Shown in pieces: positions 1 through 51,052 of a DNA stretch of 52,790 bases. Under the pieces are notes generated by a model. That model was not told the origin of the DNA. It worked only from the letters and a program-made list of their open reading frames with translations, and made no database searches. The DNA is from a virus (lineage: Duplodnaviria > Caudoviricetes), in IMG/VR virus record IMGVR_UViG_3300049846_001564, positions 1-52,790 of that record; one strand, written 5' to 3'. The position numbers and the translations under genes are program-made. The stretch's first letter is position 1. Each line of letters opens with the position of its first letter.

Positions 1-567
1 ATCATAGACAATCTGTATAGTCTTATCATTATAATATTCAGTATACTTATCTCTATTTGATTTATTCGAGTGCATATTTCCTATCTCAATCGGTAACTTT
101 ACATTTTGTAAAATTCCGGGCTTACTAAAATCTTCCATTTTAATATAATTAGATTTGGGAATGTTAGCCCATTCACACATTTGTGCATATCTTTTAGTAT
201 GTAATCCTGAATTATCAAATACCAACGAATCACGATTATATTGAATATATTCAATAAAATATTCGAATCCTTTATCTAATATTTCATATTCTTTTCTAAA
301 ATCAATATCATTTTTATGGTGAAACTTTAAGAAATGATACCAAGAAACATACCAATCCCATGGATTTCGAATAGTGGTAAAGACTATCGATTTTTCCAAT
401 TGCAAATTGGGAGCTACTTGTTTAATATCATCTAAGTTTATATGTCCTTCTAAATAATCAATATGAATATTGTTTCGTTGAAGTACGTGTTCAATAGTAG
501 TACCTCCCGTTTTAGGTATATGAACGTACACATATTGTGTATTATCATGTTTAAATAAGTATGCCAT
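1..567 (-). CDS. sulfotransferase family 2 protein (3' end runs off the window; not in ORF track)
   Basis: Hand translation from ATG 567: MAYLFKHDNTQYVYVHIPKTGGTT (5'-PSB motif HIPKTGGT) and TIRNPWDWYVSWY (3'-PB motif). Confidence 0.85.
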   Translation of the reverse strand, partial: MAYLFKHDNTQYVYVHIPKTGGTTIEHVLQRNNIHIDYLEGHINLDDIKQVAPNLQLEKSIVFTTIRNPWDWYVSWYHFLKFHHKNDIDFRKEYEILDKGFEYFIEYIQYNRDSLVFDNSGLHTKRYAQMCEWANIPKSNYIKMEDFSKPGILQNVKLPIEIGNMHSNKSNRDKYTEYYNDKTIQIVYD

Positions 568-4639: not shown

Positions 4640-5688
4640 ATACTTTTTTCTATTAATTCCTTAGCTTTGTCGAATGACATTGCATAGTATTTTTTCTTAT
4701 TATTACTAGTCTTTAAGATATCTAATTCTTGACAATACGCCAAAAAATCATTTATATCTTTTTGTCTCAAATCTAATTTCTGGTTAGAGACTAATGCTTT
4801 AAATTTAGAAGCTGACATCGATGGGTCTCCTTCTTTTCTAGATCCGTTCTGGTACAATAAATGCAATAACTTTAAATTGGTTTGCATTTGTTTATATTGC
4901 GGCGTATTCATTAATACCTTCATATCAGTAAAACTTTTTGTGATATAAAAAGCATTAAACCCGACACCCAACAAAATTATAAATTCCATAAATAAAGTTA
5001 GTAATACTAACGCCAATGTATTAGACTCATTCTCAGATTTCTTAGATTGATCTTTATTTTTGAAATCGCTTTCTAATGTAGAAATACGGGTAGTTCTCTC
5101 TTGTTCCAATGCTTTAATATTAGATTCATAGGTTTTTAGATCTTGCTTATCGCGAGTCCTAATGCGGCCATTTAAAGAGTTTTCGTATATCTGTTTAGCT
5201 TGTGTTTCATATACCGTTATTTTATTTTGGTAATACCCGAATATAGAATCCCTCTCCTGTTTGAATAATGAATCACTGCTAGTTTCTATTTTCTCAGTTT
5301 GGTCGATTAATCGATGTGCTCCATTTAGGCTTAAATAAAAAGACCCACCTACTAACATGATCACTAATAATGAACTCATAAATAATTGTATAGTAAATCT
5401 TTTTAGTTTTACCATATACATTACCAATTGTTCAAAAGCAAATCTCTTTAATAATTCATATCCACTCATAAAGACTATTATGAATCCGGATATTAGGAAT
5501 ACCTGATTGTTAAAAAATTCCGGAATAGAATCCGTAGCGTCTTTAACAAAAAAGTATGAAAAAATAACTGAGAATATATTACCTAAAAATGAAAAGTAAT
5601 ATAGCACTTTATCTAAAGTTAGAAAGTTATGCTCAAACGCGTTTACTTCAAACTTTTGTTTTAATTTTTCAAATAATTCTAATTTCAT
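4636..5688 (-). CDS. membrane protein with coiled-coil region, unknown function
   Basis: About 4 hydrophobic segments flanking a charged helical stretch. Confidence 0.6.
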   Translation of the reverse strand: MKLELFEKLKQKFEVNAFEHNFLTLDKVLYYFSFLGNIFSVIFSYFFVKDATDSIPEFFNNQVFLISGFIIVFMSGYELLKRFAFEQLVMYMVKLKRFTIQLFMSSLLVIMLVGGSFYLSLNGAHRLIDQTEKIETSSDSLFKQERDSIFGYYQNKITVYETQAKQIYENSLNGRIRTRDKQDLKTYESNIKALEQERTTRISTLESDFKNKDQSKKSENESNTLALVLLTLFMEFIILLGVGFNAFYITKSFTDMKVLMNTPQYKQMQTNLKLLHLLYQNGSRKEGDPSMSASKFKALVSNQKLDLRQKDINDFLAYCQELDILKTSNNKKKYYAMSFDKAKELIEKSI

Positions 5689-7093: not shown

Positions 7094-8458
7094 TTATTTA
7101 GTATTTACGCCATCGTTTGCACCCTCATTTACAGATACGGGATCCGGTTTAACGGGCACATCTAATTTTGGCAATTCTATTTTTTTCAATTTAGGTAATT
7201 TTAAAGGTACTGGCTTAGGTATATTATCATATCCAGCATCTAAAATAGATAACAACTTTTTAGTCATTTCATCTAAATTAAACATCGTCCTAGAACGATA
7301 TGCCTGTCGCTTACCTACCTCCTTGTATTTATCATAATGTTCATATACATCCCTCATTATACCGGATGCACTTCTATAATCAACCGTTGCCCAACTAGTA
7401 CCTGCATTTAAAACGCCTTGCCACTGTGCCGACGGATGAATAGGAGTTAATTGGAACGGTAAGAACACGGCGTGCTCCATAAAATCAACATAACCAGAAT
7501 ACTTAGGTATTATAACAGGTTTAGCTGATATAGAAGCTTCCAATATTGGTCTTCCAAATCCTTCTCCCTTAGTAAAGGAAATATGTGCTTTCACTTTAGG
7601 ATGATTATACAAATCATTCATTTGAGAATCAGATAAATTGCCATGTAATAAATACACATTTGGTAATTCATCTTTGGGATTGCACGTCTTTCTAATTGCG
7701 TCTATCTTTTCCAAGACAGTTTTTCTATCAGTATAAGAATTAGTGACTTGACTTGTCTTTAATATTAGTCCCGGAGCTTCCTTTTTATTTTTAAAAGTTT
7801 CAAAGAAAGTCTTAATCAGCATTCCCACATCCTTCCTATCTTGTCCTAAATCACCTTGTAACCAATGGCCCACGAATAAAAAATTAAATTTTTCGGGAAT
7901 AGTGTTTAAAATAGAATCCGTGGCATAATCATCTCTTTTGAAAAATTTAGTTAAGTCAGCTCCTTCAAATAATACTTCTACTGGTATATTTAATTTCAAT
8001 TCGTTGATGATAGGGCTATTCGGATTGTTATCTCTACGTTGGTGATACATTGTATTGGTAAACCCCGTTTTCGCATGCTCCGATGATACTACTAATAAGT
8101 GCATTCTATTTGCTCCTTCTAACCAACTAGGATCGACGTGATCCGTTTCAATACCTGCTGTCATACCTATATTGTATTTACCTACGGGCTGAAATTCACT
8201 AGGTACTGAAATATGTATATGAATATCAGGTTGTTTAGGTAAATCCGGATTTTGCATAATACATTCCTTGATTTTGTTATCCATCGGATCATTAGGGTCT
8301 AATCCATAAAATGGAGTATTGCCCCAATTTATAGGCCATATCTTTAATTCAAATTTATCTGAACTTAAAATAGCTCTTGCAATATCCCTTGCTCTAGCAC
8401 CATATCCTGATCTAGTAGATATCGGCGCTATCATACTAACTAATATTTTTTGTTCCAT
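7094..8458 (-). CDS. GT4 (GT-B) glycosyltransferase
   Basis: RSGYG, GEGFGRPILEA motif. Confidence 0.85.
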   Translation of the reverse strand: MEQKILVSMIAPISTRSGYGARARDIARAILSSDKFELKIWPINWGNTPFYGLDPNDPMDNKIKECIMQNPDLPKQPDIHIHISVPSEFQPVGKYNIGMTAGIETDHVDPSWLEGANRMHLLVVSSEHAKTGFTNTMYHQRRDNNPNSPIINELKLNIPVEVLFEGADLTKFFKRDDYATDSILNTIPEKFNFLFVGHWLQGDLGQDRKDVGMLIKTFFETFKNKKEAPGLILKTSQVTNSYTDRKTVLEKIDAIRKTCNPKDELPNVYLLHGNLSDSQMNDLYNHPKVKAHISFTKGEGFGRPILEASISAKPVIIPKYSGYVDFMEHAVFLPFQLTPIHPSAQWQGVLNAGTSWATVDYRSASGIMRDVYEHYDKYKEVGKRQAYRSRTMFNLDEMTKKLLSILDAGYDNIPKPVPLKLPKLKKIELPKLDVPVKPDPVSVNEGANDGVNTK

Positions 8459-8459
8459 A

Positions 8460-9401
8460 TTATTTTACTAAAACTCCATTATATTTAGGTCTAAATTCAT
8501 AATCCTTAGTGTTAATTAACTCTAAAGACTTTATCGGTTTCCAATTATCAAATAAGTAATCTAAACATTTAGTTGCGCCGGCTCCTAAATATTTTATAGA
8601 CATCCTACTTTCAGACGATTCTACCCACTCTCTTCCCAATTGTCCTAGAGCTTCTCTCATATCCGGACTCACTGAATACCAGGATTGCATAGCTTTAGCT
8701 AAATCCTCAAATGCTACTCTATCATCAAAAATATATGGAGTAGGAACCGATCCTTGTATACTTCGATTGCTAGGAAATACCGGTGCGGCCCAGCGACCAT
8801 GTTTTTGATATAGACCGGTATGATTACTTGATATAATAGCATCAAAGTCTATCCAATTGCCGTCATCATCTTCAAATCTCATTTGATCTTGTAATCCACC
8901 GGTAACGTTTGCTATCACAGGAGTCCCTGCCATAAGAGATTCAGTACATGATAAGCCCCATCCTTCATTACTACCTATACATACCGTAACATCAGCTATG
9001 TTATATAGGTAATTTAAAATTTTAGTATCCGTGATTCCTTTTGTGAATCTAACATCATATATAGGACATAAATGTTTAATGACTTCAAGTAAATTAGTAC
9101 CATTTTCATCTACAGGTTGTGTGTGCAATAACAACGAACACTTCTTAGCATATTCTTCTGGTAATTCATTACAAAAAGTATTAAATGCTAAAATAATATC
9201 CGGTATCATTTTGCGGCGGATATTCCTACTATTAAAAAATAAAATGAATTCTATTTCATTATTTTTATCACCATAGAGTTCGGCCCGTATTTGTTCCATA
9301 TTAGCGTACTCTTGATGATTTCGATCAATTGGAAAAAACATATCAGGGTTTATCCCATGTGGTACATATGCCACGATCGGTTTGTGTTTTAAAACTTTCA
9401 T
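8460..9401 (-). CDS. GT4 glycosyltransferase, C-terminal (donor-binding) half
   Basis: YVPHGI, NSRNIRRK, NEGWGLSCTESL. Confidence 0.8.
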   Translation of the reverse strand: MKVLKHKPIVAYVPHGINPDMFFPIDRNHQEYANMEQIRAELYGDKNNEIEFILFFNSRNIRRKMIPDIILAFNTFCNELPEEYAKKCSLLLHTQPVDENGTNLLEVIKHLCPIYDVRFTKGITDTKILNYLYNIADVTVCIGSNEGWGLSCTESLMAGTPVIANVTGGLQDQMRFEDDDGNWIDFDAIISSNHTGLYQKHGRWAAPVFPSNRSIQGSVPTPYIFDDRVAFEDLAKAMQSWYSVSPDMREALGQLGREWVESSESRMSIKYLGAGATKCLDYLFDNWKPIKSLELINTKDYEFRPKYNGVLVK

Positions 9402-43389: not shown

Positions 43390-43753
43390 TGGTGGAGGAG
43401 GAGGGATTCGAACCCTCGTTTCCGATACCATTTTAAAGATTTTCTACAAGTTTAGTTATATTTTTCTAAATACACAAACTATCTATTTTTACAGAATAGA
43501 AACTGTTTACCACTCTTATTTATGATCACCTAATGGTCCGTGGTGATGGCTCTATTTTTAGGCTACTTCTAACACTTCAGGCTTGGCTTCCTGAGCAACA
43601 CGTGTAATAAAAGTTGGGATACTCATCATATCCTCAGAGTTATAAATGTTTCCACTTATAGTTACCTATTAATTTTTTAATCGCACACATTAATAGGCAA
43701 TGCGATACTTGCTTGTCAATAAACTAAATATCGGGGCTTTCCATGTCTCCCCC
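43390..43753 (-). ncRNA. ssrA: tmRNA
   Basis: GGGGGAG/CTCCTCC-ACCA with G3.U70; T arm GAGGG-TTCGAAT-CCCTC; tag ORF 43653-43558 GNIYNSEDMMSIPTFITRVAQEAKPEVLEVA*. Confidence 0.9.
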
Positions 43754-44016: not shown

Positions 44017-44219
44017 AATTAATTGAGCTTAACCGGAATTCTGCTTTATCGTAACATTTGACTATTCCCTGACCAGAGTTTCGAAGCCTTGCTCACCGGC
44101 TAACTCAATTTAGGTTTCTACCTCGGTAGTGCAAATGATTTTTTAAATCTCCTACCTTAAGCAATGTAGTTCCGAGTTTTCTAATACATTTAAGTACTCG
44201 TTACGTTCTCTTATTAATT
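44017..44219 (-). ncRNA. rnpB: minimal RNase P RNA (~203 nt)
   Basis: P1 ends AATTAAT..GAG/CTC..ATTAATT; P2 CGTAAC/GTTACG; AGAAAACTCGGAA pairs with GCAGAATTCCGGTTA (P4 with bulged U). Confidence 0.7.
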
Positions 44220-49279: not shown

Positions 49280-49351
49280 AGCCAACACTGAAAATCGAAT
49301 TCAGATATCTACCTTACCAAGGTAGCGTAATAGCCTTTATACTATGTCGGC
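49280..49351 (-). tRNA. tRNA-Thr(GGU)
   Basis: CTACC-TTGGTAA-GGTAG. Confidence 0.9.
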
Positions 49352-49357
49352 TTAATG

Positions 49358-49429
49358 CGGGGGAGATTGGTAACGATCCAATATCCGGTGCTTAACAGGC
49401 ACTCGCTAATCCATTTCAGCTACACCCCC
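49358..49429 (-). tRNA. tRNA-Asn(GUU)
   Basis: GTGC-CTGTTAA-GCAC, G73. Confidence 0.85.
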
Positions 49430-49435
49430 ATTATG

Positions 49436-49757
49436 TTGCCCTAAACTCTCTTAGGCTTTTATACCTATTGTAGGCGCGGCATTCGGCGCCTCGTTATTCG
49501 GAATTTCTTCCTACAGTTTATACGAAGGGCGTCCTACCTTTGAACGATCTGGCCGAAGCCAGAGTAGGACTCGAACCTACATTTCCCCTTGATCTTGCCG
49601 GTAAACTCTCTTGAGATTTTACACCCATTGTAGGCGTAGCATGAACGCCTCGTTGTTCAGAATTTCTTCCTACAGTTTACCTCGACCGGCGTTTTTCTAT
49701 TAAACTACCTGGACGCTAAGCGTCCTGGGTGGGATTCGAACCCACATCTCCGGTTTC
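49436..49757 (-). repeat. two tandem ~160-nt units, each a permuted tRNA-like module plus a conserved ~85-nt structured tail
   Basis: Tails 49436-49520 and 49595-49680 share TAAACTGTAGGAAGAAATTC..AACGAGGCG..CGCCTACAAT..AAGAGAGTTTA. Confidence 0.8.
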
Positions 49758-49758
49758 G

Positions 49759-49831
49759 TGCGATGGGTTGGTACCGAGCCAACATCTACGGATTTTCAGT
49801 CCGCTGCATAGACCATCTTTGCTACCACCGC
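49759..49831 (-). tRNA. tRNA-Phe(GAA)
   Basis: GCGGA-CTGAAAA-TCCGT. Confidence 0.85.
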
Positions 49832-49844
49832 ATATTCAGATAAT

Positions 49845-49878
49845 AAAAAACCCGACTAATCTTTTGGACCGTCGGGTT
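49845..49878 (-). terminator. intrinsic terminator/attenuator just upstream of the tRNA array
   Basis: AACCCGAC..GTCGGGTT followed by a T-run on the minus strand. Confidence 0.8.
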
Positions 49879-49904
49879 AATTAATCATTAATCTATTCAA
49901 ACCA

Positions 49905-50054
49905 TCAAACCATATCTTTTAACGATTTCAAACCCTGTAGTCCAGTTCCTTTATCACTATTATCAAGCACCGGGCAAAAGCCTATCTGTGCCGATGTAGT
50001 AATCTCGGTTCTTGTATACCAATTCGTATGTTGTAATCGTTTCATTGAAGTCAT
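49905..50054 (-). promoter_or_regulatory. 49-aa leader peptide containing all 20 amino acids
   Basis: MTSMKRLQHTNWYTRTEITTSAQIGFCPVLDNSDKGTGLQGLKSLKDMV*; ATATTTAT motif just upstream (~50065-50072). Confidence 0.75.
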
Positions 50055-50119
50055 TATAATTTTATATAAATATAGATGATTTTTAAAAAACCACCAAAAT
50101 AATTTTATTTTTTTTTTCT

Positions 50120-50166
50120 GAACTTATTTTGGAATCGAACCAAATTACCTAACCATTAGATAAGTT
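50120..50166 (-). ncRNA. anticodon-less mini tRNA-like element
   Basis: AACTTAT-CTAATGGTTAG-GTAA-TTTGG-TTCGATT-CCAAA-ATAAGTT. Confidence 0.45.
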
Positions 50167-50174
50167 AAAATAAA

Positions 50175-51040
50175 ACGCTGAGATTATACGTTTATACGTC
50201 ACGACTTTCAAAGGATTATCTTGTTCCCTTTTTATCCAGAAGCTTTTGACTTCTACCTTGACAATGCCGATTGGTTAGACCAATCACTCCTTGAGTTGCT
50301 ATTTATCGGTTACTCTCTACATACTAACTCTTACTTAACCCTGCCGAGCTAATTAATCCTTGCGAGACTATAAGGCTTTCTACAAAATCAATATCAGCTT
50401 GCGACTAATATTGGCATCCGACAACCGGATACTAGGTAGGCATCTTTCACCTGCAACTGACAAGCACTTTTGCTTTTATGTTTCCAATGAGATTTTCATT
50501 AACAGTGAAATTCATAGTAGCGACTTGTGGATGGATGAAAGTAGTGGCTCGTCATTCCAGCTTTCCCAACTTTTGGAAGGGAAAATACTAAACTACTCTC
50601 TAAGATGTCCCCATCTTCATATTTTAAGATTCTTTCATAAAATGAACTTGGTGAGTTCATAATAAGGAAAACAGCAACACCACTTGGTTATTTTCTTGCT
50701 TTTCAGCTTTAAAGCTCCTCTAATATTGAAACACGCAATAGTACATTTAGATAAATGTATTTCTTACAATACTTCTATGAATTATTCTTATTGGAGTTCC
50801 CCCCTCAACCCAACAACCCACATTGCCGAGTCACCAAATCCGTTCCGTCTCAGTGTTACCCAAACGTACTTGGATCCAATGATATTCCACTTGCCTACTC
50901 GAGTCCAAATATTTCTATTTGGGCCGCAAACTACTTCAGTCAAAGTAATTCACTTTATACCACTTTCATGGTTTATTTAACGACTATAGGCCGCCAATAT
51001 CTTTTCATTAATCCAAATTCCGGACTAATTGGATACAAAT
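50175..51040 (-). ncRNA. large structured non-coding RNA candidate (~860 nt, GOLLD-sized)
   Basis: No minus-strand ORF in the track, raised GC, many hairpins including GNRA loops, next to the tRNA array, boxA-like site upstream. Confidence 0.6.
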
Positions 51041-51043
51041 GTA

Positions 51044-51052
51044 TCAAAGAAC
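51044..51052 (-). promoter_or_regulatory. boxA-like element GTTCTTTGA
   Basis: Same motif at 52570-52579; variant GATCTTTGA at 49075-49083. Confidence 0.45.

Follow-up and report, generated by a model that had tools for sequence, protein, structure and literature searches.

The trp, his, phe, leu, thr and ilv attenuators share a short leader open reading frame (ORF) and a mutually exclusive terminator and antiterminator, and the position of the ribosome relative to the stop codon decides between the two structures (PMC3082878, PMC1183508). A related arrangement is known from mycobacterial whiB7, where an upstream ORF (uORF), a Rho-independent terminator and an antiterminator are combined in such a way that efficient translation terminates transcription and stalling leads to read-through (PMC10274678). 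The whiB7 uORF is reported to be long and diverse and to sense the shortage of many amino acids, its composition deciding which; without its one Trp codon the answer to a lack of Trp is much weaker, which shows that a single codon can serve as a sensor (PMC10274678). Here we describe a module for which the whiB7 uORF attenuator, alike in architecture and in the stall logic that we propose, is the closest precedent. The module lies in a phage genome fragment of 52.8 kb and 33% G+C (Duplodnaviria, Caudoviricetes; IMG/VR record IMGVR_UViG_3300049846_001564), which was analysed over its whole length of 52,790 nucleotides and is hereafter called the window. A short leader ORF encoding all 20 amino acids is followed there by an intrinsic terminator and an array of tRNA genes, and on balance we favour the view that the module is a ribosome-dependent attenuator, which gates the phage tRNA array and senses the supply of any aminoacyl-tRNA. 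We computed the parts of the module and their conservation, the alternative pairing, the composition of the leader and the constraint acting on its nucleotides.

The likeness to described systems is partial in each case. By contrast to the whiB7 uORF, which consists of 25-40% Ala, varies among species and is without several amino acids in M. tuberculosis (PMC10274678), the leader of the window has 1 Ala in 46 residues and no residue dominates its make-up. In addition, whiB7 is a cellular system controlling a drug-tolerance transcription factor, whereas phage tRNAs are the target here and near-completeness of the amino-acid set is found across diverged lineages; there is no sequence relation between the two. 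In classical leaders one or a few amino acids are encoded in runs, and the genes controlled are biosynthetic. Such runs of regulatory codons are absent from the modules studied here, which hold 19-20 kinds of amino acid in 30-51 residues, and this lack of codon enrichment, together with the tRNA target, indicates that the module would work like leader-peptide attenuators without being an ordinary member of the class. Leader-peptide attenuators that sense antibiotics are likewise known, for example bmrB-bmrCD and vmlR. In antibiotic-sensing leaders any stall in the leader ORF relieves the terminator and they are general translation sensors, as in tylosin-dependent stalling (PMC6851288); by contrast to the present module, they answer drug-bound ribosomes at peptide motifs and control resistance genes, and compositional completeness is unreported for them in the literature searched. 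T-box riboswitches serve a similar purpose in coupling tRNA charging to a terminator/antiterminator decision, although a T-box binds one uncharged tRNA directly and acts without translation; a cmscan of 49820-50200 with E up to 10 returned no T-box or other Rfam cis-regulator, only terminator-like noise (at most 20.7 bits).

The leader ORF occupies 49905-50045 on the minus strand and comprises 46 codons and a TGA stop, with all 20 amino acids in codons 1-28. An earlier note on this DNA had described it as an ORF of 49 residues (50054-49905). This frame is present, with the amendment that its in-frame upstream ATG at 50054 is not conserved and that the conserved start is the second ATG, at 50045, as the note's own choice of 28 codons had implied. 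Recounting these 28 codons (50045-49962) gave what had been claimed, namely 20 of 20 amino acids and 27 different codons, with only ACA used twice; this number of different codons is the maximum possible, because Thr occurs five times. The start contexts of the leader ORFs are similar to those of the phage's own genes, none of whose 48 long ORFs is preceded by a Shine-Dalgarno sequence, their starts being preceded by A+T-rich stretches instead.

Past the stop codon stands an intrinsic terminator (49845-49878, minus strand), which consists of a G+C-rich hairpin of 8-12 bp and a run of six U. The earlier note had placed a terminator at exactly this position, and the hairpin, at -15.6 kcal/mol (z -3.8), was equalled by 0 of 200 shuffles; a simple terminator scan had overlooked it, its loops being limited to 3-8 nt. 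The first gene beyond it, tRNA-Phe (49758-49831, minus strand), is also the first tRNA of the array. Near the end of the ORF, segment B (49923-49945, minus strand; codons 34-41) can pair with the 5' arm and loop of the terminator and would act as antiterminator. Its core, 49944-49931, which the earlier note had recognised as complementary to the 5' arm, turned out to be the best partner of arm and loop across the whole upstream leader. Duplexes as good as this one, at -16.5 kcal/mol, arose in 59 of 1000 shuffles and in 70 of 1497 natural contig segments; with 10 nt of arm added the duplex reached -19.1 kcal/mol, equalled by 13 of 1000 shuffles. When the window transcript is folded up to the 3' arm of the terminator, pairing of segment B is its default state.

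The window alone would not settle whether these features exceed chance; it is their recurrence in relatives that decides in favour of a real feature. To a scan blind to composition, which looked in 135 fetched loci and the window for an ATG-initiated ORF of 30-70 codons with a hairpin and T-run within 5-75 nt, we owe 28 distinct peptides, six of them with a same-strand tRNA within 300 nt. These six tRNA-linked modules (the window and loci L066, L133, L057, L047 and L063) have ORFs of 30-51 codons that encode 20, 20, 19, 20, 20 and 19 kinds of amino acid, in this order, which is used for all six-module series below. The 22 control small ORFs with a terminator and no tRNA hold 12-18 kinds, save one ORF of 65 residues with 20. 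The six peptides, whose pairwise identities are 16-57%, fall into three families that can hardly be aligned with each other; the completeness that the earlier note had proposed to look for in related loci is thus found at 19-20 kinds in all six in spite of their divergence.

L066 was found among 66 IMG/VR loci related by their helicase, which is 62% identical to that of the window. Its array opens with Phe-Asn-Thr, as does that of the window, and its module has the same promoter-like block, an ORF of 45 codons, a shared start context and stop position, and one in-frame indel of 3 nt, while its peptide is only 29% identical and again contains all 20 amino acids. L057, L047 and L063 head syntenic arrays (Ser-Gln-Pro-Lys-Val), with peptides 16-33% identical to the window family in a forced global alignment. 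A further lineage is represented by the peptide only: P0005 (E 5e-5), found by a full HMMER search of 1.84 billion representatives, and its variant P0006 both have 43 residues and all 20 amino acids. Together with P0003 and P0002 these two make up the relatives of the window peptide.

Terminators were found by the scan in all six modules, as hairpins of -9 to -11.2 kcal/mol followed by T-runs; in L066 the terminator stands in the same place as in the window (-17 kcal/mol, z -3.9), with three stem pairs altered on both sides as read from the alignment. For each module, a segment running from 10 nt ahead of the hairpin through its 5' arm and loop was tested against the whole upstream leader, and the resulting duplex was equalled by 13, 7, 15, 27, 149 and 288 of 1000 shuffles (Fisher p 7.5e-5). 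The best partner of the 5' arm always lies within -38 to +9 nt around the stop codon, so that the pairing at the ORF end proposed in the earlier note recurs in all six loci, and the duplex takes 7/10, 7/9, 4/8, 8/8, 8/8 and 6/8 of the arm nucleotides. Similarly to classical attenuators, the antiterminator segment abuts or overlaps the stop codon in L057, L047 and L063. Each arm fits its own leader best: the window and L066 pair at -16.5 and -18.7 kcal/mol with their own leaders, as against -13.7 and -10.2 kcal/mol with each other's. When the folded transcript stops just short of the 3' arm, four or more nt of the 5' arm find partners further upstream in five of the six modules, and these partners lie entirely in the segment at the ORF end in the window, L066, L057 and L063 and partly so in L133.

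Upstream of the ORF, the region 50066-50098 (minus strand) consists of a conserved 8-nt block (50098-50091), a spacer of 16 nt and an AT-rich motif of 9 nt (50074-50066), and is a putative promoter. The 8-mer that the earlier note had regarded as a phage motif before the ORF was located at 50073-50066, inside the AT-rich motif. It is not over-represented in the contig (26 occurrences against 23.9 expected), and its 14-nt extension occurs exactly three times, each time 5-8 nt ahead of an ATG. The whole region is almost identical in L066 in the alignment, all six modules have the 9-nt motif, or the 7-nt core of it, at a distance of 13-29 nt upstream of the leader ATG, and further copies precede GOLLD RNA, tmRNA and protein genes. 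Within the ORF, a second hairpin (hairpin A; 49953-50003, minus strand; about codons 15-31) coincides with the most conserved nucleotide blocks and folds at -18.7 kcal/mol (z -3.1) in the window and, in the same place, at -18.0 kcal/mol (z -3.3) in L066; it would perhaps act as a pause or timing hairpin. The leaders as a whole also fold better than their shuffles (z -2.4 and -3.1). When the leader ORF is read in its +2 frame, TGA, TAA and TAG follow each other directly (49964-49972, minus strand) within the 3' arm of hairpin A, and this run of stops sits in a block of 10 nt identical in L066.

We infer translation of the ORF, the relative timing of ribosome and polymerase, the direction of the switch, and its physiological trigger, be it starvation or the action of anticodon nucleases. 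Transcription would start at the conserved promoter-like motif, and in the nascent leader segment B would by default pair with the 5' arm of the terminator, so that the polymerase reads into tRNA-Phe and beyond. An undelayed ribosome passing over the 46 codons would occupy or have passed segment B while the terminator is being made, whereupon the hairpin could form and transcription would stop; a ribosome held up anywhere within the initial two thirds of the ORF would leave segment B free and the array on. Since all 20 amino acids are encoded in these first two thirds, the shortage or destruction of any aminoacyl-tRNA would be sensed. In the fold models the absence of translation leads to read-through, by contrast to trp, where the absence of translation leads to termination.

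This geometry was examined with a crude thermodynamic footprint model, in which the ribosome covers the RNA from 12 nt upstream to 15 nt downstream of the first base of the P site. The antiterminator forms with the A site at residues 2-31 in the window, 2-35 in L066, 2-40 in L057 and 2-28 in L063, and the permissive zone ends near residue 31, 32-35, 39-40 and 27-28, respectively. In the same four leaders, no further kind of amino acid is added after residue 28, 35, 39 and 28; in four of the six modules, the set is thus complete just within the zone in which a stalled ribosome would permit the antiterminator. A ribosome at the stop codon blocks the antiterminator of L057 and L063 in this model.

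How unusual the composition is depends on the background chosen. When windows of 46 residues are taken from real proteins, 171 of 10,847 from this phage and 2,373 of 284,920 from all loci contain all 20 amino acids (0.8%-1.6%). A stretch of 22 residues with all 20 occurs at 157-222 (minus strand) in the ordinary long ORF 1-567. Compared with windows of equal length from 824 real proteins, the composition tail probabilities of the six modules are 0.0085, 0.0072, 0.043, 0.0085, 0.017 and 0.0013; Fisher's combination over the least extreme member of each of the three families gives 1.0e-4, and over the two families not ascertained by composition 2.5e-4. Simulations in which the columns shared with the window were fixed gave 0.043 for P0005 and 0.054 for the L066 peptide. 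With the leader's own base composition as background, all 20 kinds are reached in about 2% of cases when Met1 is fixed and in 5-8% when the seven invariant columns are fixed. The number of different codons likewise exceeds the expectation from synonymous usage of the phage in all six ORFs (P 0.099, 0.081, 0.31, 0.24, 0.023 and 0.012; Fisher p 0.0018). Leader ORFs have a G+C content of 0.37-0.41, as against 0.32-0.36 for the genomes, which could explain this codon diversity; support for the pan-codon part of the earlier claim is modest.

The pattern of conservation points to the RNA and its open frame. Proteins shared by the window and L066 are 48-81% identical and use the same codon at 680 of 1319 identical residues, whereas their leaders are 29% identical and use the same codon at 11 of 12 identical residues (binomial P 0.0044), with frame, start and stop of the ORF kept in L066. 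Between L057 and L047 the corresponding values are 74% identity overall and 887 of 1473 for shared proteins, and 57% and 22 of 24 for the leader. Low peptide identity combined with an excess of identical codons indicates constraint on the nucleotides and the open frame, and not on the peptide. No Pfam or PHROG family matches the leader peptide, and AlphaFold2 predicted no fold for it (mean pLDDT 50; with an alignment of 4 rows only, weak evidence).

A number of observations weigh against an attenuator sensing all aminoacyl-tRNAs. Most amino acids occur once or twice and not in runs, which should make for low sensitivity to mild starvation. Completeness has lapses: the one Gly of the L066 peptide is gone from its natural variant P0002, which occurs on 5 contigs, L063 is without Cys, and L133 is without Glu, its Asn, His and Phe first occurring at or past segment B. 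The full-length minimum-energy fold of the window is the terminator at every ribosome position and never the antiterminator; as the terminator is always the minimum-energy state once its 3' arm has been made, the switch must be kinetic, as in known attenuators. With the ribosome at the stop codon, segment B of the window re-pairs behind it in the footprint model, a weak point that would be eased if a ribosome within the enclosed loop hinders closure; L066 is mixed in the same position, with 4 of 10 arm nt left paired in one model run and 5 of 9 in another. L047 and L133 fit the footprint model poorly and their partial folds are weak as well, only 2 of 8 arm nt being paired in L047, and the duplexes of L047 and L063 are not significant when taken alone (149 and 288 of 1000 shuffles). 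In L133, L057, L047 and L063 the U-run is 63-135 nt away from the first tRNA, which leaves space for another promoter, and no such module stands at seven of the 11 distinct array heads in the loci examined (L112, L131, two of three in L133, two in L013, and L070). Copies of the promoter-like motif also lie within the array of the window (48199-48186, 45666-45653 and 43932-43919). Control of the leader over the whole array and tmRNA, which the earlier note had envisaged, is for this reason doubtful, and the leader may gate the first block only. The six modules come from one phage clade and are not six independent events; they may share a single origin. Finally, the RNA contigs identical to the window, which come from two metatranscriptome runs of different studies, cover the GOLLD part only (50200-50913) and none extends over 49300-50170, although contigs cannot show absence of leader expression.

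Some of these points would be expected if the same attenuator responded to nothing more specific than how fast translation proceeds overall or how it is coupled to transcription (ribosome supply, inhibitors, infection stage), with the near-complete amino-acid set as an unselected by-product. The structural evidence is identical for such a sensor, few amino acids occur more than twice, P0002, L133 and L063 fall short of strict completeness, and a leader G+C content above that of the genome widens codon choice. What makes us regard it as unlikely is that a background of leader composition rarely gives all 20 (about 2%; 5-8% with invariant columns), that control small ORFs with terminators stay at 12-18 kinds, that the set is completed just inside the permissive zone in 4 of 6 modules, and that composition decides what the whiB7 system senses (PMC10274678). 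The promoter-like motif and strong terminator that flank about 200 nt, a leader folding better than shuffles (z -2.4, -3.1), and the 63-135 nt that follow the terminator in four modules could also belong to a small gene or RNA that is autonomous, being transcribed from a promoter of its own and ending in a leaky terminator, and that stands before the array by coincidence; the tRNAs would then be made by leak-through or from other promoters and without regulated switching. This is unlikely in our opinion: conservation is at the nucleotide level with low peptide identity, no peptide fold is predicted, the antiterminator complementarity at the ORF end recurs, all six tRNA-adjacent units have 19-20 kinds of amino acid, and the gap between U-run and tRNA-Phe, 13 nt in the window and 8 nt in L066, leaves no space for a separate promoter in these two.

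Phages commonly time their genes by antitermination, and a strong terminator before an array placed among replication genes would suit a phage- or host-encoded factor that overcomes it in a temporal infection programme, with the ORF being incidental. Such a factor would leave the conserved frame, the composition and the complementarity at the ORF end unexplained, and no antiterminator gene turned up, none having been systematically searched for; we judge this account very unlikely. That a chance ORF should have met with chance complementarity in a non-coding spacer is scarcely credible. All-20 stretches do arise randomly (as at 157-222) and the window duplex is marginal in one test (59/1000), but five other loci show the features again (combined p 1e-4 and 7.5e-5), start, stop and frame are conserved, and the modules, with peptide identities of 16-57%, are not assembly copies of one sequence. 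An attenuator that gates the tRNA array according to aminoacyl-tRNA supply remains the reading we favour.

Every long ORF of the contig is on the minus strand, and the encoded proteins include a family-B DNA polymerase, a ribonucleotide reductase, a DnaB-like helicase and GroEL; replication genes surround the tRNA array. In minus-strand order, the region comprises two small ORFs (51838-51207), two tandem promoter-like units (at about 51190 and 51093) that precede GOLLD, GOLLD RNA itself (50600-50175; Rfam RF02032, 250 bits against a gathering threshold of 150), the promoter-like motif, the leader ORF, the hairpin with its U-run, tRNA-Phe and the remaining array. The earlier placement of the leader at the head of the tRNA array accordingly holds in so far as tRNA-Phe is the first tRNA, with the addition that GOLLD RNA is directly upstream of the leader. 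In place of the roughly 34 tRNAs counted in the earlier note, ARAGORN finds 27 genes for tRNA and tmRNA together by default and 32 tRNAs at a relaxed threshold. The tRNA sets of the window and L066 are near-complete, with 32 tRNAs in the former and, in the latter, 26 that cover all 20 amino acids. DNA sequencing runs yielded identical copies of the window only, and hence no variation for comparison.

The GOLLD match is full-length, its 3' domain lying at 50600-50175 within the region 50175-51050 of the minus strand, while in L066 GOLLD is located elsewhere in the array (8403-8823; 272.5 bits). Just past its 3' end in the window is a tRNA-like mini-element (50115-50165, minus strand) with a T-arm-like hairpin and complementary flanks of 7 nt, without an anticodon arm and uncalled by both ARAGORN and Rfam. 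This element may signal where the GOLLD 3' end is processed. In an Acinetobacter phage GOLLD ends 2 nt before a tRNA, and in the megaphage locus L012 two unusual tRNA-like genes (about 4848-4950 and 5035-5124) come after it, with a terminator behind them. Between tRNA-Phe and tRNA-Asn, weak matches to YrlA (Y RNA-like) were found at 49497-49609 and 49683-49754 (minus strand; 30.8 and 22.3 bits, cut-off 69). L066 has a similarly weak YrlA match at 5031-5180, and the 25-base core pattern of the element occurs exactly in 32 metagenome and six viral stretches, often among tRNAs, so that it looks like a widespread, undescribed or divergent tRNA-associated RNA. The phage also encodes a tmRNA (43390-43753, minus strand; 76 bits), for which ARAGORN gave a tag peptide, and a copy of the promoter-like motif with one mismatch (43932-43919) stands 165 nt upstream of it. 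The RNase P RNA that the earlier note had listed in the array was rejected: in the gap between tRNA-Arg and tRNA-Leu (44025-44210, minus strand) there was a weak archaeal match of 28 bits against a cut-off of 84, which was lost in a sub-region search, and no comparable element was found in L066.

Beyond the six loci and the peptide relatives, searches for the module returned little. A word-index search of 5.8 billion proteins with the 49-residue peptide found the peptide itself only, alignments of two and of four sequences found known members only, and a metagenome scan with leader-peptide patterns found nothing. Against 50,697 phage records, tblastn of P0005 gave chance hits only (E at least 2), and blastn of the L133 and L057 leaders gave no match. 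IMG/VR scans with neighbouring genes yielded nothing for an ORF of 119 residues and one of 247 residues; a 137-residue ORF led to 11 IMG/VR loci, of which the nine scanned with Rfam had no tRNA array or GOLLD. The terminator, used as an exact 30-mer, had no match in IMG/VR. With a DNA pattern of the leader, only the L066 contig was found among 15 viral stretches, and no module was seen among the 120 genome stretches listed. When the element behind tRNA-Phe served as anchor, 32 metagenome and six viral stretches were obtained, and only in the L066 contig was tRNA-Phe located upstream of it. Microcystis phage Mel-JY01, whose ribonucleotide reductase makes it the closest isolate (67.7% identity), lacks GOLLD, and one tRNA but no array was seen in the 42-kb stretch examined. 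One further protein, P0004 (196 aa, encoded on a single JGI contig of 966 nt), contains four tandem matches to the central block of the leader profile (E 1.6e-5). It may be that the central element of the leader is repeated there and its copies are read through as one ORF, or that a Cys-Pro repeat is matched by chance.

The role of phage tRNA arrays is actively debated (PMC11464382, PMC13056530, PMC12482277), the two main positions being codon-usage matching and the replacement of tRNAs destroyed by host defences. Their regulation is hardly known: a literature search that left most subscription journals outside turned up no description of a leader peptide or attenuator ahead of phage tRNA genes. 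Attenuator-like leaders are said to have been reported long ago before tRNA-Phe genes of E. coli, and a literature search on these found no such reports. A translation-sensing switch at the head of an array would mean that the phage gauges the decoding state of its host and answers with tRNAs of its own, and it would be the first case in which selection seemingly keeps a leader peptide complete, in place of enriching it in a single amino acid. If this reading holds, the leader module is a compact natural sensor of aminoacyl-tRNA supply. More tentatively, it is possible that this uncultured phage clade possesses a universal alarm for tRNA integrity, its leader being an amino-acid pangram at which any stall launches a complete replacement tRNA set. 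Were that so, the stall caused by a host anticodon nuclease cutting a single tRNA species would flip the attenuator, and tRNA arrays would be an inducible counter-defence, and not a constitutive aid to codon usage.

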